A stretch of 64,000 nucleotides of DNA, taken from assembly GCA_964425745.1 (NCBI GenBank), contig CAYRNW010000006.1, forward strand, positions 1,499 through 65,498. Reading direction: 5' to 3'. How positions within the stretch are numbered: the stretch's first letter is position 1; the number at the start of each line of letters is the position of its first letter. Shown in pieces: positions 5,056 to 39,228 of this stretch. A model generated the notes under the pieces. It worked only from the letters and a program-made list of their open reading frames with translations. It searched no databases and was not told where the DNA came from. The position numbers and the translations under genes were made by a program. The stretch comes from an uncultured Eubacteriales bacterium (GTDB taxonomy: Bacteria; Bacillota; JAAYKD01).

Positions 5056-5096
5056 CTTACTATGTAATGGAGTTAAGGTTGTGAATTGAACGAAAA
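5056..5096. repeat. Copy 1 of conserved ~41-nt intergenic motif CTTACTAnnnAATGGAG(G/T)T(G/A)A-N9-TTGAACGAAAA
   Basis: See the finding. Located between polA and DUF4406. Confidence 0.6.
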
Positions 5097-5099
5097 GAC

Positions 5100-7040
5100 T
5101 CAGTCTTTTTTATAAAAGTTTGTCTCATAACCATCTGCTCTTAAGACGAGACCGGCTGCCCAGGTGGGGGTCTGGCTCATCCGCTCACAGATATCTTGTA
5201 GAGAGGTTTGTGGCTTAGCTTCAATGACAATTTCATCATGGACATGCATCACAATGGGAAATTGACTTAGATTCTGCATGGCATAGCATAATAGATCTCG
5301 GGCTGTGGCTTGAACGATGTTTTCTACGAATTTCGGGCCGTAGGAGTTTAGCCGCTCCCATTTTTTTGTACCACCAACGCCTTCGTAGGTTATGCACTGA
5401 CCACCGAACTGGTTTTCTCCGATACGGGGTTTCACATAAGCGAGTTGTCTACCGGATGGGAGCACAATGAACAGCATGGCGCTTTGATAGTAGAACTTGA
5501 TTCCGTGCGTGATACGGCTGCTTTTCTCCCGAACAGCCTCCATAGCAGCGCGATCTACATCCCACCAAAACTGGACGATATTGGGATTGGATTGCCTCCA
5601 CGATGTGACCAAAGGCTGTAGCTCCTCTTCGGTCAAGCCCATATCCAGAGCACCCATTGCCTTTAAGGCACCAAATGAGCCGCCATAACCAAGCGCCAGT
5701 TCGGCTATTTTCCCTTTTTGTCGAAGGTGACTGTTAATGCCATGCTTCTCGACTGGCACGTTGAACATCTGCGATGCGGAGGCACAGTAGATATCTTCAC
5801 CTTTCGCAAACACCTCTTGTCGCCATTTTTCCCTGGCAAGCCAGGCGATGACACGGGCCTCGATTGCACTGAAGTCGGCCACGATGAACTTTGAATTGGA
5901 TTTAGGAACGAAGGCTGTTCGTATGACCTGAGAGAGGGTATCGGGAACATCTTCGTAGAGCATTTCTAGCGCTTCATAATCGCCACAGCGAACGAGTGAG
6001 CGAGCTTCAACCAAATCCGGAAGATGGTTCTGGGGCAGGTTTTGTAATTGTATAAGTCGTCCTGCCCAGCGACCGGTTCGGTTTGCACCATAGAATTGAA
6101 ACATCCCACGTGCACGACCGTCTTCACAAACACAATTTTGCATGGCTTGATACTTCTTTATCGAGGATTTTGCGAGTTGTTGCCGAAGGGATAGAACTCT
6201 GGATAATTCGGGTGGTGCTGTCTTAAGCAAATCAGCAACGACCTTTTTACCAAGAGTGTCTGTCTCAAGTCCATTCTCTGAAAGCCATTCTTTCATCTGC
6301 AGCACAGAGTTTGGATTCTCAATATCGGTTAAGGTTTGCACGGCATTCATTAGCTCTGAACGTGAGCGATTATCTAGCTGGACAGCTGATGCAACAAAGG
6401 CCAAGTCCAGAGCCACACCTCTGTCGTTAATCTCTTCGGAAAGATGGTATTCGGACCAGAAACTGTCTGGCACAGGAAATCTAGTCAGCTTTTCCTGAAT
6501 GGACATCTCCACTTCAACATCTCTAGCATTGTAACTTTTAAAAGCTGCCCATTTATCTGGTGCATGCGTTGGAGTATTTCTGGTTCTTTGGCCGTTTGTT
6601 TGAGTCGGCGAACAGGGAAGACAGAAGTAACGGATGAGTTCTTTCCCTTCCGATAGTTTCTGTTTTTCTAGGTTAAGAACTGAGCCGACTCCCTCTAGTG
6701 ATAGCGGTAATCCCAAGGATGCTGCCCATACCATGGAGCATTTCCAGGAAGAAGGACTTAAGTATTGACCTTGTGGTAACCCTAGAAAACGCGAAAGGCA
6801 TATACGTTCAAAGTTGGCATTGTAAGCCCATTTCTTAACAGATTCATCTTTGAGTGCAGCGATGATTTCGCTTGGCAACTTCTCACCGCAGATGAGATCT
6901 ACAATCTGTACCGGCTCATTATCCTTGCTATAACCAAACAACAGAATCTCAAAATCAGGAGATTCCACATACCGATAAACTCCTGATTTGACAAGATTGA
7001 CACTGGAGAACGTTTCGATATCTATGCTAAGTGTTTTCAT
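5100..7040 (-). CDS. Family A DNA polymerase (PolA-like, with 3'-5' exonuclease domain), phage-encoded
   Basis: DIETFS exo motif at N-terminus. Motif B RQKGKIAELALGYGGS and motif C VMHVHDEIV are present. GTGAGGT SD 8 nt before ATG at 7040. Confidence 0.9.
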   Translation of the reverse strand: MKTLSIDIETFSSVNLVKSGVYRYVESPDFEILLFGYSKDNEPVQIVDLICGEKLPSEIIAALKDESVKKWAYNANFERICLSRFLGLPQGQYLSPSSWKCSMVWAASLGLPLSLEGVGSVLNLEKQKLSEGKELIRYFCLPCSPTQTNGQRTRNTPTHAPDKWAAFKSYNARDVEVEMSIQEKLTRFPVPDSFWSEYHLSEEINDRGVALDLAFVASAVQLDNRSRSELMNAVQTLTDIENPNSVLQMKEWLSENGLETDTLGKKVVADLLKTAPPELSRVLSLRQQLAKSSIKKYQAMQNCVCEDGRARGMFQFYGANRTGRWAGRLIQLQNLPQNHLPDLVEARSLVRCGDYEALEMLYEDVPDTLSQVIRTAFVPKSNSKFIVADFSAIEARVIAWLAREKWRQEVFAKGEDIYCASASQMFNVPVEKHGINSHLRQKGKIAELALGYGGSFGALKAMGALDMGLTEEELQPLVTSWRQSNPNIVQFWWDVDRAAMEAVREKSSRITHGIKFYYQSAMLFIVLPSGRQLAYVKPRIGENQFGGQCITYEGVGGTKKWERLNSYGPKFVENIVQATARDLLCYAMQNLSQFPIVMHVHDEIVIEAKPQTSLQDICERMSQTPTWAAGLVLRADGYETNFYKKD

Positions 7041-7104
7041 ATATAGTTACCTCACACATAAGGTAGGGTGGCAGAGAAATCCGCCACCCTTTTTGCCGTA
7101 CCTA

Positions 7105-7677
7105 TTACACCAAGAAATCATCATCTTCTTCAGTGGTGAAATCTGATTCGGCGCTTGCTTTGCCACCTAAGGGTTCACCATCTCGGATTTTTTGCAGATT
7201 GTTAAGACCGCAGGCTATTCCGCGATTCCCATTGCTATTAAAGGAAAATAGGGTAATGCTGGCTCTGCCAAACACCCCTGAGTAAATCTCCGAGCGAATA
7301 AGGATAGGATTGCGATCAGCATCGACGATTCCCGGAGCAGTAGCAGAATTGGCATTAATAAAATAGGAGTTCGCATAGGCAGGATCATCTGGTCGCTCCA
7401 AGTCACCATCTCGAAGAGGGGTTTTTAAGGTGGCTAGGGGAGGAGTAGATTTACCGTTCCCTTTGAGCTTGGCTTCGCCTTCGTGATATGCTGCTTCTAT
7501 GGCTGATTTGATTTTGGCGACGGTCTTGGTATCGCTTTTAGGAATGATGAGGGAGACAGAGTATTTCGGGGTTCCACCATTGATGCTTTTTGGTTCCCAG
7601 ACATTGGCATAGCTCCATCGGGTGTTTGGCCCTGTGATAACTTTCATCGATTGATTGGCGTTGTTATTCATTTTCAT
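7105..7677 (-). CDS. DUF2815 family phage ssDNA-binding-like protein
   Basis: Acidic SSB-like C-terminal tail EEDDDFLV. Sits next to PolA as in DUF2800/DUF2815/PolA phage cassettes. Start placed at the ATG after the GGAGG SD (MKMNNNAN). Confidence 0.6.
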   Translation of the reverse strand: MKMNNNANQSMKVITGPNTRWSYANVWEPKSINGGTPKYSVSLIIPKSDTKTVAKIKSAIEAAYHEGEAKLKGNGKSTPPLATLKTPLRDGDLERPDDPAYANSYFINANSATAPGIVDADRNPILIRSEIYSGVFGRASITLFSFNSNGNRGIACGLNNLQKIRDGEPLGGKASAESDFTTEEDDDFLV

Positions 7678-8803: not shown

Positions 8804-9095
8804 GGGTTAGTTCCTCCGCATCGGCAAGAAGCGCTTTGTAATTGGCTGGATCAACACCAGATAACCGATCCGAACCATACTTCTGAAGCAAAGCTCGTAT
8901 TTGAGAAGTAAATCCGGCTCGAGACTTGTTAGCAAGGATTCCTCTTACTTCCTCTAGTGTGAGAGTGGGCTCAACTACCTTTGTGTTTTCCATTGTTGAA
9001 TGAGAACCAAACTGCTCTTCTATGGTGTTCGCGATTTGGTTAATTGTCATAGCGACGCTGCGTAAATTTTCGACGATTGTGGCTAATTCGCTCAT
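8793..9095 (-). CDS. Hypothetical phage protein
   Basis: 100 aa ORF with GGAAGGAGTGA SD 6 nt before ATG. Overlaps the downstream gene by 11 nt. Confidence 0.5.
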   Translation of the reverse strand: MSELATIVENLRSVAMTINQIANTIEEQFGSHSTMENTKVVEPTLTLEEVRGILANKSRAGFTSQIRALLQKYGSDRLSGVDPANYKALLADAEELTHAT

Positions 9096-9280
9096 CTTTT
9101 TTCACTCCTTCCAAGGATTGTCGTTGTCTAGTTAATAGCGTCAACTTTCTTGCTAAACGCATGGAGACCACACTAATTGCAGTGAGAACATCCAAAAGCT
9201 CATCTTCAGTTGTGCGATCTCGTGGGTGGTATTTGTTCAAGGGCTTCACCTCCTTGGAAGGAGAATATTGTTTATCCCTT

Positions 9281-9320
9281 CCACTACTCAATGGAGGTGA
9301 GTGAATGGATTGAACGAAAA
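9281..9320. repeat. Copy 3 of conserved ~41-nt intergenic motif
   Basis: Sequence ccactactcaatggaggtgagtgaatggattgaacgaaaac, downstream of the sigma-like gene. Confidence 0.6.
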
Positions 9321-9339: not shown

Positions 9340-9867
9340 TTAAACCCAATCTTTCAGGATTTCCTTTAATTGGGATAAGGCTTGTCTCCGTTGATAATTC
9401 AGCGTGCTTTGTGATTTGATTCCGAGCGCTTTCGCGATATCTCTTTCAGATGACCCATTGGCCCAAAGCCAACAGATCTTTGCATAATGTGGATTGATTT
9501 GTTCTAGAGCATCGAAAAGACGATTCAAAAGTTCTTGATCTTCAATAATAGACTCTACAGTGGGAGATAAGTCAGAGAGAAAATCTTGGTGTTCAACTTC
9601 ATTTCCTTCGCCGTCGTCAAAGGTGTCATTAAGAGAAGACGTGTCTCCAGATGTTAGATAGGAACATGTCCAGCAATCCATGTTGCAGAGATATCGTTTG
9701 CTTGCTGGGCATTCACAACGGCCATGTTTTTGTTGCCTACGGCGGTAAGTGTTGATTTCGCGGTAGTAGTTGTCATAGAATTCTTTGGTTACTGGTACCC
9801 ACTCGTGAAGTTCTCTGATGTAGATTTTTCGTTCATCGGTTTGACCATGGTTGTCTTGGTTTAACAT
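9340..9867 (-). CDS. Sigma-70 region-4-like phage transcription regulator with Cys-rich zinc-finger-like insert
   Basis: C-terminal HTH ERDIAKALGIKSQSTLNYQRRQALSQLKE is sigma-70 region 4 type. CECPASKRYLCNMDCWTC forms a cysteine cluster. Start refined to ATG 9867 (GGAAAGGA SD), whereas the ORF-track start is at 9981. Confidence 0.6.
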   Translation of the reverse strand: MLNQDNHGQTDERKIYIRELHEWVPVTKEFYDNYYREINTYRRRQQKHGRCECPASKRYLCNMDCWTCSYLTSGDTSSLNDTFDDGEGNEVEHQDFLSDLSPTVESIIEDQELLNRLFDALEQINPHYAKICWLWANGSSERDIAKALGIKSQSTLNYQRRQALSQLKEILKDWV

Positions 9868-10119
9868 AAAATGTCCTTTCCGCCTGTGTGAATTGAGCGG
9901 CAAGGACACATAATGAAGCTGCTTCGATGAAGAGCTACCGAGAATGCCTAAAACGGGCATAGCAAGGCACGGTGGGTACATCTGAGGCTCCGAACACGGT
10001 TTTTACCGTGCTTGGAACTTCCTATGTATCCCGCCGCCTTAATGCGCATCTCAGGCTTTGAGAATTATTTATTGATGTTGAGAACGTCTACACGAATCGC
10101 TTTAAGTGGTTTAATAACT

Positions 10120-10311: not shown

Positions 10312-11157
10312 GTGATTCGTATAAACGCATCTGAGTTCTTTAAGAAGGTATATCCCTACTTAAACAATCAAAAAAATCAAGGCGTGTTTGTTACGAATTG
10401 CTTCATTGCAGCTGGTAGCACAGTGTTTACGCTACCAAAGCTCAAGACAAAGCAAACAAGCGACAACCTTGAATATCAACGAATGATTTATAAAGGCAAA
10501 CGGCAAATAACAGCCGACATGAAGGCGAGCTTTCCGGACCCGTTTCCGTTGGACTCTTTATCAAAGTTCTTTGCTGACAATATAAAAGAGGATAGAATTC
10601 GCGATGTCATGACAGCTTTTTCAATGCCCCCTTCTGCGGAACCGGAAAAGTTCTTGCTATCAAAATCACTGGCGTTGCAGTTTCAGCTACTTATTCAGAG
10701 CGAAAGCAATGATGTTGATGATATTGTCGCAACCAAATACCAACAACTGCTGTTAGAACCTGCCACGCAGCCAGTAAAGAGGTTATCTCCGCTCTATCCG
10801 GGAGATAGCGCTTGGGTTCTTGAATGTAAGCCGCAACGCTCATATTCGGTTCATTGTTACGATAAATTCCAACATACGTGGGTAATTCGAAATAACGGAA
10901 GTCAGACATGGCGTGGTCGCAAACTGGTTTTTATAAACAGCAATGAAGTGCGACCAAGAGCAGATGCAAACAACATTGAAATACCGGATACGCCACCAGG
11001 TAAGGATATAAAAATAACCACAGGCTTTGACGCCCGTGGTTTTGAGGGGAAGTATGAGTGTATATGGCAAATGCAGGATAGCAGTGGTAATGATTGCTTT
11101 CCCAATAATGAAAAACAGTTTTGCATATTATTTGATATAAAATTCCAATCAAAATAG
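10312..11157 (+). CDS. Hypothetical protein with C-terminal Nbr1-FW (four-tryptophan) domain
   Basis: C-terminus HTWVIRNNGSQTWRGRKLVFINSNEV..GKYECIWQMQDSSGNDCF matches the Nbr1 FW pattern W..N.G...W...W. The first in-frame start is GTG 10312, embedded in AGCGAGG, so the start is uncertain. Confidence 0.5.
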   Translation: MIRINASEFFKKVYPYLNNQKNQGVFVTNCFIAAGSTVFTLPKLKTKQTSDNLEYQRMIYKGKRQITADMKASFPDPFPLDSLSKFFADNIKEDRIRDVMTAFSMPPSAEPEKFLLSKSLALQFQLLIQSESNDVDDIVATKYQQLLLEPATQPVKRLSPLYPGDSAWVLECKPQRSYSVHCYDKFQHTWVIRNNGSQTWRGRKLVFINSNEVRPRADANNIEIPDTPPGKDIKITTGFDARGFEGKYECIWQMQDSSGNDCFPNNEKQFCILFDIKFQSK

Positions 11158-11182
11158 TGCTGGATATTTGGAGGATATAAAC

Positions 11183-11383
11183 GTGAGCGATAAAAGCATT
11201 GAAAAATGGTCTACATTAAAAGAAGTACAAGAATATCTCGGTGTCGGCCGCGAGACCATTCTGCAATGGATCGCAAAAAGAAATATGCCCGCCTATAAGG
11301 TAGGCAGGCTCTGGAAATTCAAACTGTCCGAGGTTGACGACTGGATTCGTTCGGGCGGCGCTGACGACAGGAATGCAGAATAA
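11183..11383 (+). CDS. Excisionase/AlpA-like MerR-type HTH DNA-binding protein
   Basis: 66 aa with LKEVQEYLGVGRETILQWIAKRNMPAYKVGRLWKF. GGAGGA SD 7 nt before GTG 11183 (the ORF-track TTG at 11168 lies in the SD). Confidence 0.6.
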   Translation: MSDKSIEKWSTLKEVQEYLGVGRETILQWIAKRNMPAYKVGRLWKFKLSEVDDWIRSGGADDRNAE

Positions 11384-11478
11384 GTCCGTTTTATGGGACA
11401 GGCCAAAATTTAGAATTAGCGTGTGGCATTATAGCCAAAATCGCAAATATAAAAGCGAAAAGGATAGGGTGAAATACT

Positions 11479-13488
11479 ATGGACAATCAAGTGCACAATT
11501 CAATAGTTAGCTTTATATGGGGTATTGCAGACGACTGCCTCCGTGATATATATGTACGCGGCAAATACCGCGATGTTATTCTGCCAATGACGGTTATCCG
11601 CCGTCTTGACGCAATGCTTGAGGATACCAAGCAAGCGGTGCTGGATATGAAAAAAACATTGGATGCCGCCGGTATTACCAACCAATGGCCCGCGCTTTGC
11701 AACGCTGCGGGACAGGCATTCTGCAATGCTTCGCCATTCCGTCTGCGCGACCTCACCAGCCGCGCGAAGAAGCAGACTTTGAAGACCGATTTTGAGGCCT
11801 ATCTCGACGGTTTTTCGCCAAACGTGCAGGAAATCCTCGAAAAATTCAAGTTCCGCAATCAGATTGATACTATGATCGACGCCGACATTCTCGGCGCGGT
11901 TATTGAAAAGTTTATTTCTCCAACCATTAACTTGAGTCCGAAGCCGGTTTACAAGGACGATACCAAAGAGGAAATCCGCCTGCCTGCGCTGGATAACCAT
12001 GGCATGGGTACTGTCTTTGAGGAGCTTATCCGCAAGTTCAACGAGGAAAACAACGAGGAAGCCGGAGAACACTGGACTCCTCGTGATGTTGTCGAGCTTA
12101 TGGCCGACCTTGTTTTTGCGCCGATTGCCGACAAGATAATGGACGCCACCTATTCCTGTTATGATGGTGCTTGTGGTACCGGCGGCATGCTGACTGTTGC
12201 ACAGGAACGGCTGATGACGCTTGCAGAACAGTCCGGCAAACAAGTATCAATTCACCTTTTCGGGCAGGAGATCAACCCCGAAACTTACGCAATCGCAAAG
12301 GCGGATATGCTGCTGAAAGGCGACGGGGATCAAGCCGAGCATATCGGCTTTGGCTCCACGCTATCAAATGACCACAACGCAACCCGCCAATTTGACTTCA
12401 TGCTTTCCAATCCGCCTTACGGGAAGAGCTGGAAAACCGACGCCGAGAAGATGGGCGGTAAAAAAGATATACTGGATACAAGGTTTAACATATACCTCGA
12501 AAACGGCGAGCAGCTCGCCATGATTCCGCGCACAAGCGACGGCCAGCTCCTGTTTCTGCTGAACAATGCGGCAAAGATGAAAAAAGACACGCCGCTCGGC
12601 AGCCGTATTGCCGAGGTACATAACGGTTCCTCGCTCTTTACGGGCGATGCGGGGAGCGGTGAGAGCAATGCGCGCAGATATCTTATTGAAAGCGACCTTG
12701 TCGAGGCGATCATCGCCTTGCCGGAAAATATGTTTTACAACACAGGCATCGGTACATATATTTGGGTTTTGTCCAACAAAAAAGAAGACCGCCGCAAGGG
12801 GAAAATTCAATTGATCGATGCCACGGCCATGAAATCCCCGCTTCGCAAAAACATGGGTAAAAAGAACTGCGAATTTACGGAGGAAATCCGCGCGGAGATT
12901 CTGCGCATTTTCATGGAGATGGAAGAGAGCGAAGTAAGCCGCATCTTCAATAACGAGGAGTTTGGCTACTGGGCTATTACAGTGGAAAGGCCGCTTCGCT
13001 TGAGAGTATTCCCGGAAAGGCATATTCCTGATTCTGTTTTCAAGAATGCGGATGAACGCGCCGATTACGAACGGGCTATTAGTAGATTGCCGAAAAATAC
13101 TCCTTTGGATAATTGGGAGGCGTTTGCCAAAGCGGCAAAATTGAAGGCGGCGCTGCTTAAAAAGGTGCGCCCCTATATCACCGAAAAAGACCCGTCCGCG
13201 CAGCCGGTTGAGGGAGAGTCCGATACCGACCTTCGCGACACGGAAATTGTTCCGTTTGCCTATGACGGCGGCATCGAAGCCTTCATGAAAAACGAAGTGC
13301 TTCCGTATGCGCCAGACGCGTGGGTGGATGAGAAAAAAACACAGATTGGCTATGAGATCAGCTTTACGAAATATTTCTACAAGCCGGTTGAGCTGCGTTC
13401 TTTAAAGGATATTCTTTCTGACCTCAAAACTCTTGAAAAAGAGACGGACGGCATGATGGCGGAAATCATCGGGGGGCTTGAGGAATGA
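11479..13488 (+). CDS. hsdM: Type I restriction-modification system, DNA methyltransferase subunit M
   Basis: N6-adenine MTase motif LSNPPYG and HsdM N-terminal domain. GC-rich relative to surroundings. Confidence 0.95.
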   Translation: MDNQVHNSIVSFIWGIADDCLRDIYVRGKYRDVILPMTVIRRLDAMLEDTKQAVLDMKKTLDAAGITNQWPALCNAAGQAFCNASPFRLRDLTSRAKKQTLKTDFEAYLDGFSPNVQEILEKFKFRNQIDTMIDADILGAVIEKFISPTINLSPKPVYKDDTKEEIRLPALDNHGMGTVFEELIRKFNEENNEEAGEHWTPRDVVELMADLVFAPIADKIMDATYSCYDGACGTGGMLTVAQERLMTLAEQSGKQVSIHLFGQEINPETYAIAKADMLLKGDGDQAEHIGFGSTLSNDHNATRQFDFMLSNPPYGKSWKTDAEKMGGKKDILDTRFNIYLENGEQLAMIPRTSDGQLLFLLNNAAKMKKDTPLGSRIAEVHNGSSLFTGDAGSGESNARRYLIESDLVEAIIALPENMFYNTGIGTYIWVLSNKKEDRRKGKIQLIDATAMKSPLRKNMGKKNCEFTEEIRAEILRIFMEMEESEVSRIFNNEEFGYWAITVERPLRLRVFPERHIPDSVFKNADERADYERAISRLPKNTPLDNWEAFAKAAKLKAALLKKVRPYITEKDPSAQPVEGESDTDLRDTEIVPFAYDGGIEAFMKNEVLPYAPDAWVDEKKTQIGYEISFTKYFYKPVELRSLKDILSDLKTLEKETDGMMAEIIGGLEE

Positions 13489-14834
13489 GAGCATATAGTG
13501 AATATTGCCGTGTTGATGCTGAGTGGCTTGGCTCTCTCCCTTCACATTGGGATTGCAAAAAGATTGGAGCTTTGTTTTCACAACGAAAAGAAAAAGTCTC
13601 CGATAAAGACTTTGCACCACTTTCTGTTACGAAAAATGGTATTTTGCCACAACTATCAAATGCGGCAAAATCAAATGATGGAGACAACCGAAAACTTGTA
13701 CGCGCGGGAGATTTTGTAATTAACAGTCGCTCCGACCGAAAAGGTTCTTGTGGAGTGTCGTTTCTTGATGGCTCTGTTTCTCTCATAAACATTGTGCTGA
13801 CACCACGACAAGATTGGAATAGCAGGTATGTACATTATCTTCTTCGTAGTCATCTTTTTTCCGAAGAATACTATCATTACGGGAGAGGCATAGTTGCTGA
13901 TCTTTGGACAACAAGATACAGCGAAATGAAAAACATATATCTTCCCGTACCACCATGTGCCGAACAAGACCAGATTGTACGCTATTTGGATTGGCAGGTT
14001 TCAAAAATAAACAAGCTTATAAAAGCAAAGAAAAAGCAAATTACTTTACTTGATGATCTGAAGCGCTCGGTTGTGAACGATGCTATTACTCATGGCCTTA
14101 ATCCGAATGTAGAAATGAAGTCTAGTGGTGTTGTATGGCTTGGAGATATTCCTGCCCACTGGACAACCATAAAACTTAGACAAATACTAACACCTGTAAG
14201 TATTAAGAACCACCCAGAACTACCTCTTTTATCTGTTGTCCGTGAGAAAGGTGTGATTATTAGGGATGTTGAGGATAAAGACAGCAACCATAATTACATA
14301 CCAGATGACTTGAGTGGCTACAAAATGGTAAAAAAAGACCAATTTGCTATGAATAAAATGAAGGCATGGCAAGGGTCATATGGTATATCTAATTATACAG
14401 GTATTGTAAGTCCAGCATATTACATCTTCAACGTAGCTTTTGATAATCTTAAGTATTTCCATTATGCTATCAGAAGCAAAGTTTATGTAAATTTCTTTGC
14501 ACAGGCATCCGATGGTATTCGAGTAGGTCAGTGGGATTTATCTATTCCCAAAATGAAGGAAATTCCATTCATCGTTCCACCAGAGGATGAACAGAAAGCT
14601 ATTGTCGAGTATATACCTAAAGCTTGCGCTAAATATGATGCAGGAATAACGCGATTGACAGAGGAAGTTGCACTTTTGGAAGAATATAGAGCAAAGCTTA
14701 TTTCCGATGTTGTCACCGGTCAGATTGATGTTCGTGGCATTGAAATCCCGGAATATGAGTATGTAGAAGAATCCGATGAAGAGTCCGACGAGATGGACGG
14801 TGCGGACGAAGAAGCGGAAGAACAGGAGGAATGA
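13485..14834 (+). CDS. hsdS: Type I restriction-modification specificity subunit S (two target-recognition domains), unusual acidic C-terminal tail
   Basis: ATGA overlap with hsdM. Two TRD/conserved-repeat architecture. Tail EESDEESDEMDGADEEAEEQEE. Confidence 0.9.
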   Translation: MRAYSEYCRVDAEWLGSLPSHWDCKKIGALFSQRKEKVSDKDFAPLSVTKNGILPQLSNAAKSNDGDNRKLVRAGDFVINSRSDRKGSCGVSFLDGSVSLINIVLTPRQDWNSRYVHYLLRSHLFSEEYYHYGRGIVADLWTTRYSEMKNIYLPVPPCAEQDQIVRYLDWQVSKINKLIKAKKKQITLLDDLKRSVVNDAITHGLNPNVEMKSSGVVWLGDIPAHWTTIKLRQILTPVSIKNHPELPLLSVVREKGVIIRDVEDKDSNHNYIPDDLSGYKMVKKDQFAMNKMKAWQGSYGISNYTGIVSPAYYIFNVAFDNLKYFHYAIRSKVYVNFFAQASDGIRVGQWDLSIPKMKEIPFIVPPEDEQKAIVEYIPKACAKYDAGITRLTEEVALLEEYRAKLISDVVTGQIDVRGIEIPEYEYVEESDEESDEMDGADEEAEEQEE

Positions 14835-14837
14835 GTA

Positions 14838-17804
14838 ATGGCTTTTACCAACACAAAGGAAAGCGGTCTTGAGGCCTTAATTGTTGATTGGCTTGTTAAT
14901 CATAACGGCTACGAGCAGGGCACAAATACGGATTTTAACCGTGAATATGCGATTGATGAAATGCGCCTGTTTCGCTTCCTGCAGGACACGCAGCCGGACG
15001 CCATGGAAAAGCTGGGTGTATTTAAGGCTGACCTTAAAAAGAAGCAGTTTTTGAACCGACTGCAGGGCGAGCTTGCCAAGCGCGGCATTATTGACGTGCT
15101 GCGCAACGGTATCAAGATATACCCGGTTGACCTCATCATGTTCTATCTGACGCCGACGGAAAATAACGCCAAGGCCAGACTGATGCATGAGAAGAACATA
15201 TTCAGCGTTACCAGACAATTGCAGTATTCTATGGACGCAACGCGGCTGGCGCTGGATTTGTGCGTCTTTATCAACGGCTTGCCGGTTATCACCTTTGAAC
15301 TAAAGAACCAGCTGACAAAGCAGACGGTGGACGACGCAGTAGAGCAATATAAAAACGACCGCGACCCGCGCGAGCTGCTGTTCCAGTTCAAGCGCTGCAT
15401 GGTTCATTTTGCCGTGGACGATGCCCGCGTGAAATTTTGCACAAAACTGGACGGAAAAAGCAGCTGGTTCCTGCCTTTTGACAAAGGCTATAACGACGGA
15501 GCGGGCAACCCGCCTAACCACGATGGCATTATGACTGACTATTTGTGGAAGGATATCCTCTCAAAAAAGAAGCTCTGCCGTATAATTGAAAACTATGCTC
15601 AGGTGGTTGAAGAGATAGATCCGGAAACAAAGAAAAAATCCGTAAAACAGATATTCCCACGCTACCATCAGCTTGATGTGGTTGAAAGCCTTTTTGCCGA
15701 CGTAAAACGCAATGGCATCGGTAAACGCTATCTTATCCAGCACAGCGCGGGCAGCGGCAAGTCCAATTCCATCGCATGGTTGGCGCATCAGTTGATTGGG
15801 CTTGAAAAAGATGGCCATCCGATGCTCGATTCCGTTCTTGTAGTTACAGACCGCCGCATTCTGGATAAGCAGATCCGCGACACCATTAAGCAGTTTATGC
15901 AGGTACAGAACACAGTGGCATGGGCTGAACGTTCTGGGGATCTCCGTAAAGCTATACAGGATGGCAAACGAATCATAGTTACTACTATTGAGAAGTTTCC
16001 ATATATTGTTTCTGATATTGGTACTGAACATAAAGACAGGCGTTTTGCTGTTATTATTGATGAAGCCCATTCCGGACAAAGCGGACGAAACTCCGCGCAG
16101 ATGAACCTTGCTCTCTCTGGCCTTGCCTCAGACGATGAGATGGACAATGAAGATAAAATCAATGCGATGATGGAAGGCCGCAAGCTGCTGCAGAATGCCA
16201 GTTATTTTGCCTTTACTGCTACGCCGAAGAATAAGACGCTTGAGACATTCGGTATCCCATATCAAGATGGGGATAAAATTAAACATCGGCCGTTCCATGT
16301 ATATACTATGAAGCAGGCAATTCAGGAAGGCTTTATCCTTGATGTTCTTAAATATTACACACCGATCGACAGTTATTACCGACTGATGAAAACTGTCGAG
16401 GATGACCCGATGTTTGATAAAAAGCGTGCTCAAAAGAAGCTACGTTCGTTTGTCGAGAGTGATAGCTATACCATTTCGCAGAAAGCACAAATGATGGTTG
16501 ACCATTTCCACGAACAGGTTATTGCCAAAGGCAAAATCGGCGGACAAGCCCGTGCCATGGTGGTTACAGCCAGTATTCCGCGCTGCATTGAATACTATTA
16601 TGCGATTAACAAGTGCTTAGCTGCGCGCCACAGCCCATACAAGTCGATTATTGCATTCTCCGGGGAACATAAGTATCAAAACCAGGAACCTGCGCTGACT
16701 TCAGCGGCGATGAATGGTTTCCCGGATGCCTCAATTCCGAAGACATTCAAAAAAGACCCGTATCGCCTTCTGATTGTGGCGGATATGTTCCAGACCGGTT
16801 TTGACGAGCCGTTGCTCCATACGATGTATGTGGACAAGATGCTTTATGATATAAAGGCGGTGCAGACCCTTTCACGGCTCAACCGTGCTTGCCCTAAAAA
16901 ATACGATACTTTTGTATTGGACTTTGCGAACAAAACATCAATCATTGAAGAAGCGTTTTCACGCTACTACCGTACGACCATTCTATCCGGCGAGACCGAT
17001 CCCAATAAGCTGTATGACATTATTGCGCTTATGGAGGGATATCAGGTTTATTCTGCGGAACACGTTGAAAAGCTGGTTGATTTGTATTTGAGCGGAGCCG
17101 AGCGTGACAGGATCGACCCGATTCTGGACGCTTGCGCTGCGGTTTATAAGGAACTCCAAACAGACGATCAGATCAAGTTCAAGAGCGCTGCAAAATCCTT
17201 TGTGCGTACATATGGATTCCTTGGAGCCATTTTGCCATACGGCAATGCCGATTGGGAGAAGCTGTCTATCTTCTTGAATCTGCTGATTCCGAAGCTGCCC
17301 GCGCCGCGAGAAGACGATCTTTCACAGGGTATTCTTGATGCCATCGATTTGGATAGTTACCGCCTGGAAGCGCGTGAGGTGATGTCAATCAAGTTGGAGG
17401 ACGAGGACGCAGAGGTTGCCCCGGTTCCTACCGGTAAAATCGGACATATTGTCGACCCCGAGATGGATTTGCTTTCCTCTATACTTTCGGCTTTCAACGA
17501 TATGTTCGGGAACATTGACTGGAAGGACGCCGACAACGTCCGAAGACAGATTCTCGAAATACCTGCAATGGTATCCAAGGACAAGAGATATCAGAACGCC
17601 ATGAAGAACTCCGACAAACAGGAAGCGCGCACTGAGAGTGAGCGGGCGCTACAGCAGGTTATTTTCTCAATTATGTCCGATAATATGGAGCTTTTCAAAC
17701 AGTTCCAAGACAACCCATCGTTCAAGAAATGGCTCTCTGATATGGTATTTAACCTTACTTACAATCCGGATGGGAAACCGTATCAGATGCTAAAAAAAGA
17801 GTAG
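14838..17804 (+). CDS. hsdR: Type I restriction enzyme, R subunit (helicase/endonuclease)
   Basis: Walker A QHSAGSGKSNS. DEAH box VIIDEAHSGQ. About 990 aa, immediately after hsdS. Confidence 0.95.
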   Translation: MAFTNTKESGLEALIVDWLVNHNGYEQGTNTDFNREYAIDEMRLFRFLQDTQPDAMEKLGVFKADLKKKQFLNRLQGELAKRGIIDVLRNGIKIYPVDLIMFYLTPTENNAKARLMHEKNIFSVTRQLQYSMDATRLALDLCVFINGLPVITFELKNQLTKQTVDDAVEQYKNDRDPRELLFQFKRCMVHFAVDDARVKFCTKLDGKSSWFLPFDKGYNDGAGNPPNHDGIMTDYLWKDILSKKKLCRIIENYAQVVEEIDPETKKKSVKQIFPRYHQLDVVESLFADVKRNGIGKRYLIQHSAGSGKSNSIAWLAHQLIGLEKDGHPMLDSVLVVTDRRILDKQIRDTIKQFMQVQNTVAWAERSGDLRKAIQDGKRIIVTTIEKFPYIVSDIGTEHKDRRFAVIIDEAHSGQSGRNSAQMNLALSGLASDDEMDNEDKINAMMEGRKLLQNASYFAFTATPKNKTLETFGIPYQDGDKIKHRPFHVYTMKQAIQEGFILDVLKYYTPIDSYYRLMKTVEDDPMFDKKRAQKKLRSFVESDSYTISQKAQMMVDHFHEQVIAKGKIGGQARAMVVTASIPRCIEYYYAINKCLAARHSPYKSIIAFSGEHKYQNQEPALTSAAMNGFPDASIPKTFKKDPYRLLIVADMFQTGFDEPLLHTMYVDKMLYDIKAVQTLSRLNRACPKKYDTFVLDFANKTSIIEEAFSRYYRTTILSGETDPNKLYDIIALMEGYQVYSAEHVEKLVDLYLSGAERDRIDPILDACAAVYKELQTDDQIKFKSAAKSFVRTYGFLGAILPYGNADWEKLSIFLNLLIPKLPAPREDDLSQGILDAIDLDSYRLEAREVMSIKLEDEDAEVAPVPTGKIGHIVDPEMDLLSSILSAFNDMFGNIDWKDADNVRRQILEIPAMVSKDKRYQNAMKNSDKQEARTESERALQQVIFSIMSDNMELFKQFQDNPSFKKWLSDMVFNLTYNPDGKPYQMLKKE

Positions 17805-17826
17805 CGACTTGTACGGGAGGAAAAAC

Positions 17827-26308: not shown

Positions 26309-26310
26309 TT

Positions 26311-34733: not shown

Positions 34734-34754
34734 TACCTTATCTAACAATCTACC

Positions 34755-35360: not shown

Positions 35361-36908
35361 TTATTCTATAATCACACCGGACTTGAATTCCACAGTATAT
35401 TTGTCCTCATAAACAATAACCTTCTCAATTAAATGCCGGACGATCCCATCGTCATAGTTAATCAAGAAAGAAGTTTGTTGCTGCATAAAATTACTCATAT
35501 CGGAAATGCGTTTCTTCAAATCTTCTTGCCTCATATTATTTAGCTCTGCCTTTTGCTTTTCTTCCTTCAGCCTTGCAATCTCATCAGCAACATCATCATA
35601 ATCTGCTTTGGAGTTCACCCGTTTCACGAGCTTAGCCTGAAGAATCTCTAATTGATTAGCAACTTCTGTTAGATCGGGGCTTTGCTCTTCTTGTAAGGCT
35701 TTCTGTATATTTTCCTGCAAGATCTTAAGATAGTCATTCTTCTCGCACAACACCTTGTTAATCGCTTTCACTAGAGTCTCCTCAAGATTTGGTTCACTCA
35801 CTGTTCTTGCATCGCAGAATACCCCGGTATTTTCAAGCCGACTTACACATCGCCAGACAACTGACTTTTTGCCATGGTTGTTCCAATGAACGCGTCTAAA
35901 GACCTCGCCACAATTTCCACAAATGATCTTGTTCGCTAAGGTGTGATTGCTGCTGAATTTACGATTCTGGCCATTAGGACTGGTGTGAATGATCCGACGC
36001 CTAATCAATTCCTCTTGTACTCGCATGAAGATTTCACGCGGGATAATGGCTTCATGGCTATTTTCTACATAATACTGAGGAACGATACCGTGGTTTTTCA
36101 CTCTAGTTTTATTTAAAAAATCTGTGGTATAAGTCTTTTGCAAAAGGGCATCACCGATATACTTCTCATTTCTTAAGATCTGATTAATGTTACCTGTATG
36201 CCACTTGGTACGACCCGAACCGTTCTTGATGCCATCCGCCATCAGACCTCGAGCGATTTTAAGAAGACTATTACCTTCGAGGTATTCTCTATAGATGCGC
36301 TTTACGGTTTCTGCTTCTTCTGGAACAATCACTAAGCGCTTGTTCTCATCTTTGGTGTAACCGAGAAACCACTTGCAGTTCACCTGAATCTCACCTTGCT
36401 GGTAGCGATATTGCAAACCCATTTTCACATTCTGACTTAAGGATTGACTTTCTTGCTGGGCCAGGGAAGCCATAATGGTAAGCATGACTTCACCTTTAGA
36501 ATCCATGGAGTTTATGTTCTCTTTCTCAAAGAAAACCGGAATACTTTTTTCTTTCAACTGGCGGATAAACTTTAGACAATCCAATGTGTTTCGGGCAAAT
36601 CGGCTGATTGACTTGGTAATGACCATGTCAATATTCCCAGCCATACACTCGTCAATCATGCGGTTAAACTCTTCACGCTTTTTGGTGTTGGTACCGGAAA
36701 TACCGTCATCAGCGAAGATACCGGCCAATTCCCAATCTGGGTGTCCTGTAATATAAGCTGTATAGTGATCTATTTGGGCTTCATAACTGGTTGCTTGTTC
36801 CTCGCTATCGGTAGAAACTCGGCAATAAGCTGCTACTCTTAGTCTTGGCTTTTCTTCACCTTTGACCTTTCGGGTGTGTTTCCTTGCGGGGATAAGGGTT
36901 ACATTCAT
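35361..36908 (-). CDS. Large serine recombinase (resolvase catalytic domain + recombinase domain + zinc ribbon)
   Basis: [16 protein letters not shown] catalytic Ser region. Recombinase domain. C-terminal C..C...C..C region and coiled coil. AAAGGAAG SD 8 nt before ATG 36908. Confidence 0.85.
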
Positions 36909-36913
36909 TCCCG

Positions 36914-37324
36914 TCACTTCCTTTCGATTAAACTATAAGCATACTCTGCTTGTTGAAATGGGTCGTCAAAATGCTTTAGACCTTCGTTCATTCGGAAGGA
37001 GGTAGGGAAGACGACTTCTTTTTTATTTTTGAGGGACTTAGTTCTACCAAGTTTCAAAGCGCGCCGTTCTCGTTCTTCCTGAACTTTCATGAACAATTCC
37101 TCATCAATAATCGGTGGGTAGAAATCATCACCCAGATATCGTTTGTTCTGAAGAAACAAGCCAACTGCAGAATGAGTTGCATTCATTTCCGCTTTTTTCG
37201 CAGCTGAAGATAAGGAGTCTCCAGATAAGTAGCAAATAAAAAGCATCCGAACCTGTGCGGCAGTGCTCTCTTCAATTACCGCTCTCGCATTCTCAATCTT
37301 ATACCCATAAGGAATGTAACTCAT
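36914..37324 (-). CDS. Recombinase-domain-only fragment or partner (serine recombinase middle domain, lacks catalytic N-terminal domain)
   Basis: [55 protein letters not shown] matches the Recombinase (PF07508-like) domain. TAATG overlap with the upstream recombinase. Confidence 0.55.
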
Positions 37325-38895
37325 TACTCCACCAACCTTTCTCTCAGAGTCAGACCGCACTTTAACTCAAATCCGATTTCGAACCTAGAGTAAACATGAA
37401 TCTTAGCTACGAATTGTTCGAAAAGGTCAGCATCAAAACGCTCTAACATGGATGCTTTAACCGTATATTTGATTAAGGCCAGCAAAGCATTGATGCTTTT
37501 GTGCTCGCTGTTCAGATAGTAAGCGGTTGATTCTTTCTGACGTTCTAATCGGCTGGCTTCCTGTAACAGCTCATTATTGCCTTTATTGAAGGCTGCAGTT
37601 TCTAGATAACCCTTACTTGTAAGAGCAAGCAATGTTTCACGCTGCTTCTTATTTTCATCCAGCTTTTTCTCAAGATCTCGTAAGCTAGCCTTCTCATCTT
37701 TGGAGTTCATACCTCGAAGGCTCAATAGAAGCGGTTTCAGAACAGATGTATAGCCGAAGATGAGCTTATTCATCATGACAATGAAGGTATATTCAATGTG
37801 TGTTTCCGGGATGAATTTTATAGAACATAGATTGGCATTTGTGATGTGCGTAGAACAGCACCAAGCAATCATACCTTCGCCCTTGGTATGAATTCGTCGC
37901 TTGAATTTTGCTCCGCATTCAGCACAGAGGATTTTTCCGGAAAAGGCATATCGATTCGAATATTTGGCCGACTTCATCTCGGAATTTTTCTCTAAACGGT
38001 GCTGGTTTATCAATGATTGTACAGCATCGAAGTCTTCCTGACTGATAATTGCCGGATGATGATCCTCAATCAAAAAGAAATCTCGTTCACCATAGTTGAT
38101 ATGCCGTTTAAAGCGGTCATCGGTATAGGTCTTTTGTAATAACGCTTTTCCCGTATATCGTTCGTTCTTCAGAATTCCTAGAACGGCGGATGCCATCCAT
38201 TCTCCACCTTTTTTACTGGGTATTTCTAGCCGATTAAGCTCTTTCACGATCTTACCCGCTCCCAGTCCAGACAAGCTTTTTGAGAAGATGAAACGCACAA
38301 TTTCTGCTTGGATTTCGTTGATCATCAGCTGGCCATCAACCGAATCGTAGCCCAGAGGTGGACTCGATATTTTATAGGTTCCATTCCGGAATCTGCTCTT
38401 AACCGACCATTTGCTATTTTCAGCGATCGAGACCGACTCGCTTTCGGCCAAACCGGAAAGAATAGATAGCATCAATTCACTATCCAGGGAACCTGTATGA
38501 ATGTTTTCTTTCTCGAAGAGAATATAAACCCCAAGCCCAATGAGCTTTCTCACCAATTCCAAGCAATCCGTGGTATTTCTGGAGAAACGGCTGATAGACT
38601 TTGTAAGAATCAGATCGATTTGTTTGTTCTCACAATCAGTGATCATTCGTAAAAAATCCGGTCGCTTTTCTTTTTTTGTTCCTGTGATCCCTCGATCATA
38701 ATAGATACCAGCGAAAGTCCAATTAGGATTCTGTTGTATGGTTGACTCATAGTGCTTCATCTGAGCATCTAGGCTTTCAAGTTGATCATCTTCATCGGTC
38801 GAAACCCGACAATATGCAGCGACTCTTAGTTTTGTAGGTTCGGTGAGGTTCTCAGCACTCGGTTCGAGCTTAGTTACTTTTCTCAATCTTTTCAC
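37324..38895 (-). CDS. Large serine recombinase
   Basis: [16 protein letters not shown]. Recombinase domain. Zinc ribbon CAECGAKF..WCCSTH. Coiled-coil C-terminus. Start uncertain (GTG 38895 or TTG 38886). Confidence 0.85.
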   Translation of the reverse strand: MKRLRKVTKLEPSAENLTEPTKLRVAAYCRVSTDEDDQLESLDAQMKHYESTIQQNPNWTFAGIYYDRGITGTKKEKRPDFLRMITDCENKQIDLILTKSISRFSRNTTDCLELVRKLIGLGVYILFEKENIHTGSLDSELMLSILSGLAESESVSIAENSKWSVKSRFRNGTYKISSPPLGYDSVDGQLMINEIQAEIVRFIFSKSLSGLGAGKIVKELNRLEIPSKKGGEWMASAVLGILKNERYTGKALLQKTYTDDRFKRHINYGERDFFLIEDHHPAIISQEDFDAVQSLINQHRLEKNSEMKSAKYSNRYAFSGKILCAECGAKFKRRIHTKGEGMIAWCCSTHITNANLCSIKFIPETHIEYTFIVMMNKLIFGYTSVLKPLLLSLRGMNSKDEKASLRDLEKKLDENKKQRETLLALTSKGYLETAAFNKGNNELLQEASRLERQKESTAYYLNSEHKSINALLALIKYTVKASMLERFDADLFEQFVAKIHVYSRFEIGFELKCGLTLRERLVE

Positions 38896-38937
38896 CCCCT
38901 TGTTAGTGTGTCATATTACCTCTAATGCAAAGTTATA

Positions 38938-39159
38938 TCAACTTATATTTGGCATAATTTTGGCCAGAAGGGGAGAGAAAGATTCTCGATTTAGCAGGGT
39001 AATTTTCCAGTATTCATCTTTAGTGATGAGGTCGTTTTTCAGTAATGAATCAAGGAGCTGTTGTGCCCGATGGTAATCTACCTCGTTCTGTAATTGTTCA
39101 TGCGTGATTAGACCAGATTCTTGATGATCGATCGTGTTGATGGGTTGTTTATTCTCCAT
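38938..39159 (-). CDS. Small hypothetical protein upstream of the recombinase array (candidate recombination directionality factor or regulator)
   Basis: 73 aa from the ATG preceded by GGAGGG-7 nt. It follows the conserved 41-nt motif copy on the minus strand. Confidence 0.3.
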   Translation of the reverse strand: MENKQPINTIDHQESGLITHEQLQNEVDYHRAQQLLDSLLKNDLITKDEYWKITLLNRESFSPLLAKIMPNIS

Positions 39160-39184
39160 AGCATTTCCCTCCATCGAAATAGTC

Positions 39185-39228
39185 TCTCTTACTAATCAAT
39201 GGAGGTGAAACATCGTTTTGAACGAAAA
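39185..39228. repeat. Copy 2 of conserved ~41-nt intergenic motif
   Basis: Sequence cttactaatcaatggaggtgaaacatcgttttgaacgaaaaa, between endolysin terminator and recombinase array. Confidence 0.6.

Follow-up and report, generated by a model that had tools for sequence, protein, structure and literature searches.

Genomic Context of the Motif

The window, by which we mean the whole 64-kb stretch of DNA analyzed here, carries a short motif in three copies, designated sites (a), (b), and (c), each lying between blocks of minus-strand phage genes at a junction that carries the motif in relatives too. The features surrounding the copies are listed below, with the gene calls of the window (locus L105) used for the downstream blocks.

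4601..5026, minus strand: DUF7768/nucleoside 2-deoxyribosyltransferase-like gene, the first downstream of site (b); followed by endonuclease, primase-helicase, VRR-NUC and SNF2 genes
5053..5096, minus strand: site (b), prophage 1, TTTTCGTTCAATTCACAACCTTAACTCCATTACATAGTAAGGGC, 34.2 bits; between polA and the DUF7768/endonuclease/primase block
9040..9240, minus strand: 66-aa ORF, the first gene downstream of site (a), with a TTG start and the Shine-Dalgarno (SD) sequence AAGGAGGTG; followed by phrog_408, DUF2800 exonuclease, SSB and polA genes (5100-9095)
9277..9320, minus strand: site (a), prophage 1, TTTTCGTTCAATCCATTCACTCACCTCCATTGAGTAGTGGAAGG, 51.7 bits; between the sigma-like gene and the small-ORF/DUF2800/SSB/polA block
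9340..9867, minus strand: sigma-like gene, prophage 1, 175 aa; proposed reader of the 5' box
9865..9915, minus strand: stem-loop sequestering the ribosome-binding site (RBS) and start codon of the sigma-like gene, -19.7 kcal/mol
10312..21413, plus strand: cargo in the left arm of prophage 1, running divergently from the sigma-like gene
35361..39174, minus strand: block downstream of site (c), with a SHOCT protein gene (38938-39174) and then serine recombinase genes (37324-38895, 36914-37360, 35361-36917)
39185..39228, minus strand: site (c), prophage 2, TTTTCGTTCAAAACGATGTTTCACCTCCATTGATTAGTAAGAGA, 46.9 bits; between the endolysin terminator and the SHOCT gene plus serine recombinases
39232..39269, minus strand: intrinsic terminator after the endolysin gene, -19.2 kcal/mol, z -5.0, followed by U7

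Two related prophages adjoin within the window. Just past its right end, the source contig has a second replication module, 80-85% identical, so that site (c) is to be assigned to prophage 2 and the other two sites to prophage 1; the earlier suggestion of a single phage, with the motif as the link between its left replication module and its right recombinase/late module, therefore does not hold. The corresponding site (b) of prophage 2 is degenerate (L114). The window thus needs re-annotation as two neighboring prophages, with the defense island as cargo of one of them.

All nine marker genes of Ca. Heliusvirales (TerL, portal, protease, MCP, exonuclease, SSB, DNA polymerase, endonuclease, and helicase; PMC11283538) are present in the window, divided over the two prophages, and deposited phages with a homologue of the sigma-like protein (27-43% identity) are exclusively Ca. 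Heliusvirales or other human-gut records of the NatCom series. By marker-gene content and sigma-like homologues, the prophages are assigned to Ca. Heliusvirales, a lineage reported in >90% of people in one cohort (PMC9226167). A search of the phage collection gave no near-identical DNA, only ~72% matches to a helicase gene.

Extent and Specificity of the Motif

The plus-strand pattern AATGGAG-N13-TTGAACGAAAA matches without mismatch at 5066-5096, 9290-9320, and 39198-39228, all 18 fixed bases being identical in the three copies, and the threefold occurrence of the motif proposed in the sequence-only reading is thus confirmed. Chance would yield an expected 0.13 matches, and none of 100 shuffles gave three. 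Elsewhere in the 64 kb there was no further match even with up to three mismatches allowed, and a weight matrix built from relatives, which scores the three sites at 34-52 bits, brought up no additional weak copy above 12 bits across the window.

Read on the minus, or gene, strand, the conserved unit measures ~44 nt, TTTTCGTTCAA-N13-CTCCATTrnnTAGTrr, and runs from 5096 to 5053, from 9320 to 9277, and from 39228 to 39185. The originally reported length of ~41 nt was too short for the unit, which includes an invariant T-A-n-T and a purine run 3' of CTCCATT. The variable center, described as 9 nt, spans 13 nt between the exact blocks and ~10 nt at the level of the family, and the third copy as originally written, assigned to 39185, starts at 39188. 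The context had been correctly described: the copies lie 3' of polA, the sigma-like gene, and the endolysin gene, and 5' of the next minus-strand block. The window 44-mers are identical to one another at 29-32 of 44 positions, and the next start codon follows 17-43 nt downstream of the unit.

We found no sigma-70 hexamers of the TTGACA-N16-18-TATAAT type at any of the three copies and accordingly rejected a promoter for the primary sigma factor; the motif's dyad symmetry is no better than that of shuffles. Literature searches with the motif strings returned only chance matches in unrelated papers.

Conserved Positions in Related Phages

In relatives, the sites recur after the sigma-like gene (a), after the DNA polymerase gene (b), and at the junction of the endolysin gene with the SHOCT-serine recombinase genes (c). 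The exact pattern occurs in 61 viral stretches, of which 49 have a site at one of the three junctions, 5 have it in recombinase- or capsid-bearing elements, and 7 show no recognizable context. In 43 bacterial genome loci retrieved through the protein alone, the motif lies 3' of nearly every sigma-like gene, and a scan with a second 5' box variant, GGCCAA, recovered all three contexts (42, 23, and 18 sites). The complete 56-kb Ca. Heliusvirales genome PV036431.1 contains exactly three sites, at 16013, 20434, and 52609, which together occupy the three junctions, lie on the gene strand, and share one box variant.

Across these relatives, PV036431.1 included, the unit invariably points the same way as the genes that follow it; T38 lies a median of 44 nt from the start codon, and the 10-nt spacer between the boxes is invariant across box classes. 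The copies therefore have the makeup of a bipartite promoter, with two blocks at fixed spacing, in the direction of the genes and a short distance upstream of them. Unrelated matches on large contigs (such as L028, L029, L046, L048, and L055) arise from the pattern GGAGG ... TTG AAC GAA AA; a small opposite-strand ORF of this form was considered as a candidate and rejected, its SD-to-start spacing being ~13 nt and the peptides, of 9-19 aa, unconserved.

Upstream signals differ among the sites. The U-tract of the endolysin terminator continues into the T-run that opens site (c), and a strong terminator hairpin (-24.6 kcal/mol) lies just upstream of site (a) in the relative L062; the hairpins upstream of sites (a) and (b) in the window are weak (-10.4 and -4.2 kcal/mol) and no better than those of shuffles.

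A Sigma-Like Protein without Region 2

The protein encoded next to site (a) combines sigma regions 3.2-4 in its C-terminal half with an N-terminal domain that contains four cysteines in the pattern CX9CX3CX2C; residues 1-70 consist of a beta-hairpin, a helix, and this cysteine cluster. Pfam Sigma70_r4_2 recognizes the region 4 helix-turn-helix (HTH) in 17 of 48 members of the family, whose profile matches sigma factors in the PDB; a single-sequence PDB search returned nothing significant. A structure model from 8 sequences was weak (pLDDT 71) and was replaced by a 48-sequence model; the best structural matches of the protein are the extracytoplasmic function (ECF) region 4 domains of SigL, SigR, SigD, SigW, and SigE. 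TIGR02937 aligned only over positions ~66-165 of its profile, with scores of 26-37 bits that lie below the cut-off of 42.9, and neither this profile nor the fold of residues 1-70 revealed a region 2.

Since it lacks region 2, the protein could not carry out canonical -10 melting; rather than a full sigma, it may be part of a split sigma factor, as one of its subunits, or an activator. A region-2-like partner was sought among the small ORFs that follow site (a), and these gave no sigma matches. At 50% identity the family comprises at least 633 clusters.

Covariation of the 5' Box with the Recognition Helix

The 5' box exists in four variant classes, GTTCAA, GGCCAA, GTCAAA, and GTACGA, and in 40 of 58 multi-site loci sites (a) and (b) carry one and the same variant, a uniformity seen in all four classes. 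Among unique pairs of recognition helix and site (a), 93 of 94 could be assigned to four classes with no cross-class exception, an association that may rest on few independent switches given the phylogenetic non-independence of the sequences:

helix QS[T/A]xN, box GTTCAA: 38 pairs
helix R[N/S]T[F/Y]x, box GGCCAA: 50 pairs
helix RTTFL, box GTCAAA: 2 pairs
helix NWYKSKA, box GTACGA: 3 pairs

The remaining pair, from L094, has a helix and a box unlike all four classes. Sites (a) and (b) of L211 differ in box class, and some phages carry a second box class that is mismatched to their own helix. Most mixed-variant loci contain tandem arrays, in which complete units follow one another at a period of 59-62 bp, each with a different 5' box; in a satellite-like element without a sigma-like gene (L151), six such units form an array ahead of the primase gene.

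Proposed Regulatory Model

Taken together, synteny, the concerted 5' box, and its tracking with the recognition helix support the original suggestion of a phage-specific promoter or operator that may be read by the sigma-like factor. Of these, we favor a promoter: the motif is probably a bipartite promoter, specific to the phage and read by the sigma-like protein that the phage encodes, and it is from sequence comparison that we infer this identity, the positive sign of control, the transcription start, and the reader of the 3' box.

Each copy would be a complete, asymmetric promoter of a temperate Ca. Heliusvirales phage, ~44-60 bp long, which would open with the T-run, followed by a -35-like 5' box, (C/T)G(T/G)(T/C)CAAAC, and the 10-nt spacer. 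The nearly invariant 3' box, CCTCCA(T/G)TGGGTAGTG, would cover the -10 region and could be read by the four-cysteine N-terminal domain; initiation is predicted at the purine run, at about motif position 44, which would give a leader of ~10-40 nt. The sigma-like protein would be the first product, expressed from the divergent control region, and the SD-sequestering hairpin would gate its translation; among unique leaders of sigma-like genes from relatives, 88 of 90 have a paired SD window, despite their differing sequences. The region 4 HTH of the protein would then bind the 5' box and direct the host RNA polymerase to the three units: unit (a) for exonuclease, SSB, and DNA polymerase; unit (b) for the deoxyribosyltransferase-like protein, the primase-helicase, and the genes onward; and unit (c) for the SHOCT protein and the serine recombinases.

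Among the alternatives to a promoter read by the phage's own protein, the least improbable, although still unlikely in our estimate, is that the sigma-like protein binds the motif without the motif being its promoter, so that the copies would be either repressing or insulating operators or activator sites used with the host primary sigma. A protein reduced to regions 3.2-4 would fit such a role, and the match between helix and box speaks for recognition rather than for the sign of control. However, the copies lack dyad symmetry and have no sigma-70-like -10 or -35 elements at or just downstream of them, and the repeating element of the tandem arrays is an entire 60-bp unit complete with 3' box and purine run, which fits stacked promoters and not operators. 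Moreover, site (c) in the window and site (a) of L062 come after a strong terminator, so that transcription must be restarted there. We consider it less likely still that the copies are promoters whose reader is an alternative sigma factor of the host or a different phage protein, with the sigma-like gene a mere linked neighbor. The 3' box is nearly invariant over phages of many Clostridia families, as expected if a conserved host component reads it, and S. aureus prophages are known to have a conserved 40-bp region upstream of int that depends on the host sigma-H (PMC2869324). The 5' box, in contrast, varies between phages while being uniform across the sites of most genomes, and its variants sort, with no exception, by the recognition helix of the phage's own protein; phage-dependent box classes are not what a host factor would predict.

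An action of the motif as RNA, whether as an anti-SD segment (CACCUCC) that masks the downstream RBS on read-through transcripts or as a leader or antitermination element, appears improbable. CACCTCC in the 3' box is indeed complementary to strong SD sequences, within-site complementarity averages 7.44 nt versus 6.90 nt in permuted pairs, and at site (b) in the main clade pairing extends to 12 nt, but the excess is due to that one clade, and the sites in the window pair over only 4-8 nt. The boxes are conserved as sequence, and a class switch in the 5' box brings no compensatory change between them; the clear terminators that precede their copies sit poorly with antitermination; and a search of the whole window against the Rfam 15 families at gathering score gave no match, nor did a tRNA search. 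We rejected, as the least probable, the other proposal of the sequence-only reading, that the copies at 9.3 and 39.2 kb are att-like recombination sites bounding a 30-kb insertion in a single prophage. The copies are direct repeats that flank recombinase genes and a defense island, and the order of sigma-like gene, motif, and recombinase gene fragment in L044 and L074 could have come from recombination between copies. Relatives, the complete 56-kb genome among them, nevertheless keep their copies at these junctions whatever the cargo; the remaining copy lies within the replication module, the two copies in question belong to different prophages, and the supposed insert would contain the sigma-like gene itself. 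The copies are not confined to the ends of an element, each phage having three internal, syntenic ones, and they lack the dyad symmetry expected of serine-recombinase att sites.

Comparison with Known Regulators

Phage-encoded sigma factors with a promoter consensus of their own include gp28 and gp33/34 of the B. subtilis phage SPO1 and gp55/gp33 of T4. The likeness lies in an early phage gene product that, as proposed here, redirects the host RNA polymerase, and in a few phage promoters that differ from the host consensus and head later transcription units. Unlike these factors, the present protein has no recognizable region 2 and carries a four-cysteine N-terminal domain; its proposed promoter bears no relation in sequence to theirs, it comes from a temperate phage, and recombinase genes fall within the proposed regulon. 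The two-subunit sigma factor SigO-RsoA (YvrI-YvrHa) of B. subtilis offers a parallel in that region 4 is kept and a functional region 2 is absent, and for that reason a protein of the SigO type needs a second component for the -10 element. In the present case, however, no region-2-like partner is found among the small ORFs after site (a), and the N-terminal domain is a cysteine-cluster fold rather than a truncated region 2.

The protein resembles ECF (group 4) sigma factors in its size of ~175 aa and its top structural matches to ECF region 4 domains, and the site resembles theirs in a 5' box that ends in AAC, as ECF -35 elements do, and in the ~17-18 nt between this box and the downstream conserved block. 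It differs from them in its TIGR02937 match, which is below cut-off and confined to the C-terminal part, in the missing region 2, in the lack of an evident anti-sigma gene here, and in a downstream box of ~16 nt unlike CGTC-type -10 elements. RinA, ArpU, and DUF722 proteins, too, are small phage regulators with a likeness to sigma region 4, and they activate a phage operon, but they are encoded immediately upstream of terS and their targets are the packaging and lysis genes, whereas the present protein heads the replication module. We rejected membership in these families, as the protein has no Pfam match to them and prophage 2 has a separate DUF722 gene before HNH-terS.

Satellite promoters that answer the transcription activator of a helper phage and drive satellite genes are known from P2 Ogr and P4 delta, and the six-unit array of L151 suggests the same logic. 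This comparison rests on relatives rather than on the window, and differs in that several units of different specificity classes stand in tandem and in that the activator is sigma-like, not a zinc finger of the Ogr type.

A Possible Helix-Box Code

More tentatively, and with somewhat less than even confidence, we propose that the motif is the cognate promoter of an uncharacterized family of cysteine-cluster, region-2-less sigma-like proteins, that helix and box form a code, and that satellites exploit this code. If so, the family would control early/middle and recombinase genes of Ca. Heliusvirales, and specificity would be set by a simple, re-programmable code between the first recognition-helix residues and four 5' box bases, against a constant 3' box. 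Co-resident prophages and capsid-encoding satellites would stack two to six units with different 5' boxes, and such stacks ahead of replication or recombinase genes would fire upon induction of any of several helpers.

The papers searched on the Ca. Heliusvirales lineage do not discuss regulation, and mention neither a sigma factor nor a promoter. Three promoters and one dedicated factor would, if the proposal is correct, constitute the first regulatory map for the lineage and provide a testable rule leading from protein helix to DNA box. They would also provide a sequence signature that finds these phages, separates co-resident prophages, and flags satellite-like elements apparently listening to several helpers.

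Left-Arm Cargo of Prophage 1

The left-arm cargo is not a motif-bounded insertion. It contains an Ig-like ORF, an HTH_17 gene, a type I restriction-modification (R-M) system (hsdM/S/R), and Hachiman (HamA plus helicase), as identified with Pfam. Four relatives (L068, L181, L031, and L042) share 10.2-19.8 kb, adjoining their sigma-like gene, and R-M cargo also occupies the corresponding slot in prophage 2 and in PV036431.1.

Three Exact Motif Copies Distributed over Two Adjacent Prophages

A pattern scan of the window finds AATGGAG-N13-TTGAACGAAAA with zero mismatches at 5066, 9290 and 39198 and no further copies in the 64 kb, even when three mismatches are allowed; 0.13 matches are expected by chance and none of 100 shuffles contains three. 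All three copies claimed by the sequence-only reading are present as the sequences it described, except that the third string begins at 39188, three bases later than reported, and that the variable centre measures 13 nt rather than 9. The genes around every copy lie on the minus strand, where the unit reads TTTTCGTTCAA-N13-CTCCATT-(r n n)-TAGT-(r r) and is separated by 17–43 nt from the start of the gene that follows. A terminator-like hairpin of the preceding gene is found directly 5′ of each copy, the single strong one being that of the endolysin gene before site (c) (−19.2 kcal/mol, followed by U7, a clear intrinsic terminator); those before sites (a) and (b), at −10.4 and −4.2 kcal/mol, are weak and not better than shuffles.

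Motif sites in the window and the corresponding junctions in relatives
Site (a), 9290: next gene 66-aa ORF, start 9240 (−). Junction: sigma-like gene, motif, small ORF, phrog_408, DUF2800 exonuclease, SSB, DNA polymerase
Site (b), 5066: next gene DUF7768, start 5026 (−). Junction: DNA polymerase, motif, DUF7768, then primase-helicase
Site (c), 39198: next gene SHOCT, start 39174 or 39159 (−). Junction: endolysin, motif, SHOCT, serine recombinases

A 126-kb metagenome contig contains the whole window without a difference, and just past the window's right end lies a second set of DNA polymerase, DUF7768, primase, VRR-NUC, SNF2, DUF722, HNH and terS genes, which is 80–85% identical to the window's left module and leads directly into the genes for SAM synthetase and ParB-methylase with which the window ends on the right. 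This second phage's upstream portion is viral contig L007, with its own sigma-like gene (60% identical), site (a) and type I R-M cargo. The window therefore spans two adjacent related prophages (80–85% nucleotide identity in the replication genes) rather than the single phage to which a shared promoter/operator would have tied the left replication and right recombinase/late modules. Prophage 1 begins with cargo and the sigma-like gene, carries sites (a) and (b), and leaves the window at its left end; prophage 2, to which the second replication module and L007 assign site (c), extends from past the right end to the recombinases at ~35.4 kb. PV036431.1, a complete 56,394-bp genome of the gut phage lineage Ca. 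Heliusvirales, agrees in linear order: cargo comes first, then the sigma-like gene, the replication and late genes, lysis, site (c) and finally the recombinases. It has exactly three sites, at 16013, 20434 and 52609, one for each of junctions (a), (b) and (c), and every one is on the gene strand.

This arrangement does away with the alternative in which the copies at 9.3 and 39.2 kb bound an insertion in a single prophage, as the flanking copies lie in different prophages and the cargo belongs to the left arm of prophage 1. The 10.2–19.8 kb block (Ig-like ORF, HTH_17, type I R-M, Hachiman) is common to relatives, where it adjoins the sigma-like gene, and for this reason is left-arm cargo; at least the portion of the defence island up to 19.8 kb is thus shared. 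Between ~20 and ~35 kb lie McrBC-like genes, macro-domain genes and, separating the defence island from the prophage 2 recombinases, host-like genes in an AT-rich block, where the att junctions of both prophages should be.

Cargo and accessory regions
11479–26766 (+): defence island; type I R-M (hsdM, hsdS, hsdR), Hachiman (HamA and helicase), McrB-like 860-aa protein with McrC-like partner, macro-domain protein
28000–35350: AT-rich block, 37–38% GC vs 44–47% elsewhere; GGDEF, HAD, ABC1/UbiB kinase, DegV, TetR, Hsp20
55217–56930 (+), 58771–60157 (+), 62737–63930 (−): accessory genes in the prophage 2 late region

In that late region, a flavin reductase gene pair precedes terL, MarR and MFS transporter genes lie between terL and portal, and a SAM synthetase gene adjoins the ParB-methyltransferase gene. 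Site (b) of prophage 2 (contig L114, ~1255–1300) keeps its 5′ box (TATTCGTTCAAAT) and has a decayed 3′ box (CGTCCACTAAACAAAAGG), so that site (b) may be dispensable.

Motif Placement Across Relatives

An exact pattern scan of viral contigs recovered 61 stretches, 49 of them with a site at one of the three junctions and five (L010, L017, L026, L053, L059) within elements bearing recombinase or capsid genes; the other seven have no recognisable context, and at least five of these are coincidental coding matches within large contigs, where the opposite strand has an RBS and then M-L-N-E-K. A motif-independent search of bacterial genomes with the sigma-like protein as query agrees on placement: it returned 43 loci from Clostridia (Oscillospiraceae, Ruminococcus, Intestinimonas, Caproiciproducens and others), nearly all with the motif directly 3′ of the sigma-like gene and repeated after the polymerase gene. 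Deposited phages with a homologue are exclusively Ca. Heliusvirales or other human-gut NatCom-series records. GGG, T35, A36, T38 and the purine run are also conserved, though not fixed by the search pattern.

In assemblies that bear the names of distant taxa (L077–L084 and L091: Streptococcus mitis, Filifactor villosus, Megasphaera, Johnsonella, Parablautia), the sigma-like genes and site (a) regions are nearly identical; either the host range is very broad, or there has been transfer between hosts, or the assemblies are contaminated or mis-binned. Separately, in L044 and L074 the sigma-like gene and motif are directly followed by part of a recombinase gene that shares 81% identity with the 518-aa recombinase of the window, and in L063 a recombinase gene directly follows the sigma-like gene, with no motif found there; these may be remnants of (a) × (c) recombination or small elements of recombinase, cargo and sigma-like gene.

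The 5′ Box Follows the Predicted Recognition Helix

The 5′ box occurs as CGTTCAAAC (the window's class), CGGCCAAAC, TGTTCAAAC, CGTCAAAAC or TGTACGA, with the 3′ box and the 10-nt spacer unchanged across classes. Sites (a) and (b) share a class in most genomes (40 of 58 multi-site loci), PV036431.1 has a single class at all three sites, and a scan for the GGCCAA class recovers all three contexts again (42, 23 and 18 sites). The class goes with the residues that open the predicted recognition helix of the phage's own sigma-like protein. Among 94 unique (helix, box) pairs, 93 sort into four classes, none of them combining the helix of one class with the box of another; the remaining pair (L094) matches no class in either helix or box.

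Recognition helix and 5′ box classes (unique pairs)
QS[T/A]xN with GTTCAA: 38
R[N/S]T[F/Y]x with GGCCAA: 50
RTTFL with GTCAAA: 2
NWYKSKA with GTACGA: 3

Exceptions are L211, in which sites (a) and (b) differ in class, the decayed site (b) of prophage 2, and some phages with a second box class mismatched to their own helix. Linked inheritance alone could produce such a correlation, but it leaves the concerted change at three dispersed sites without an account. The syntenic sites, concerted boxes and helix–box match point to a phage promoter or operator possibly read by the sigma-like factor, the other option initially offered. We consider it rather probable that the motif is a phage-specific bipartite promoter with its 5′ box read by region 4 of the sigma-like protein. 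The 3′ box would span the −10 region, where a conserved component (perhaps the N-domain) would recognise it, with transcription predicted to start near motif position 44, inside the purine run. Several features argue for the promoter reading: box centres ~22 bp apart and a sigma-factor-like arrangement, in which region 4 lies upstream of the N-domain; a strong terminator before site (c) here and before site (a) of the relative L062; short leaders; whole units stacked in tandem in relatives; and, at the three copies, neither dyad symmetry nor a primary-sigma consensus.

The Sigma-Like Protein and Its Control Region

The sigma-like gene (9340–9867, minus strand) encodes 175 aa and belongs to a family of at least 633 clusters at 50% identity (E ≤ 1e-3), which carries no name beyond phrog_13787, "unknown function". 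Pfam gives no match at threshold, and a 48-member profile matches sigma regions 3.2–4 of FliA, SigA, SigB and SigW in the PDB. The general NCBIfam sigma-70/ECF model scores below cut-off and aligns through its C-terminal part only; region 2 is therefore absent, and on this count the protein falls short of sigma-70 membership. Its N-terminal 70 residues, which include four invariant cysteines (CX9CX3CX2C, residues 51–68), are more conserved than its C-terminal half, paralleling the stronger conservation of the 3′ over the 5′ box. The cluster could bind Zn or, as its last three cysteines are spaced like typical Fe-S ligands, an Fe-S cluster. The putative regulator may act as a complete sigma factor, as one of the two parts of a split sigma, or as an activator.

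The system follows the same logic as the phage-encoded sigma factors of SPO1 and T4 and resembles both the split sigma SigO-RsoA and P2/P4 helper-satellite transactivation. It differs from RinA/ArpU/DUF722 in both position and family. The candidate promoter sequence is new. The Ca. Heliusvirales literature searched makes no mention of sigma factors or promoters, and searching published text for the motif strings gave nothing relevant. The lineage is very widespread, and the helix–box rule is directly testable.

At the start of the sigma-like gene (9865–9915, minus strand), a 19-bp stem sequesters the RBS together with the start codon. Among 90 distinct leaders of relatives, unrelated in sequence, 88 likewise have the SD window paired (median −20 kcal/mol over 61 nt, z −3.6). 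Main-clade leaders carry an upstream CCGAAACGGAG that could base-pair with the anti-SD arm; the hairpin looks like an undescribed translational switch. The control region up to the divergent Ig-like ORF (9975–10305) contains about five GGTACA/TGTACC repeats (9975, 10251, 10274, 10279–10301) and a perfect 8-bp inverted repeat, TTTACACA-AAAA-TGTGTAAA, at 10122–10141, which together are operator-like. At main-clade site (b) (for example L062, ~15030–15110), motif positions 18–29 (TTTTGACCTCCA) are exactly complementary to the DUF7768 ribosome-binding region (TGGAGGTCAAAA), pairing that could keep DUF7768 from being translated in read-through transcripts. At site (b) of the window there is no such complementarity to the downstream ribosome-binding region.

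Tandem Arrays and a Satellite-Like Element

Whole units are repeated in 22 loci with a period of 59–62 bp, in arrays of two to six complete units. Within an array, each unit has a 3′ box of its own and differs from the others in its 5′ box. GGCCAA-class phages have arrays of two units at sites (b) and (c), and the longest arrays precede the primase gene of small capsid and recombinase elements without a sigma-like gene.

Loci with tandem arrays
Two units: L127, L140, L144, L149, L150, L153, L175, L191, L193, L198, L233
Further loci: L139, L197, L199, L228, L010, L053
L151, 7100–7470 (−): six units

In L151, an 11.4-kb contig, the six units lie immediately 5′ of a D5-type primase-helicase gene, followed by capsid and serine recombinase genes, with a divergent Cro/C1 gene and no sigma-like gene; from its sequence, the element looks like a satellite that would answer the sigma-like factors of several helper classes.
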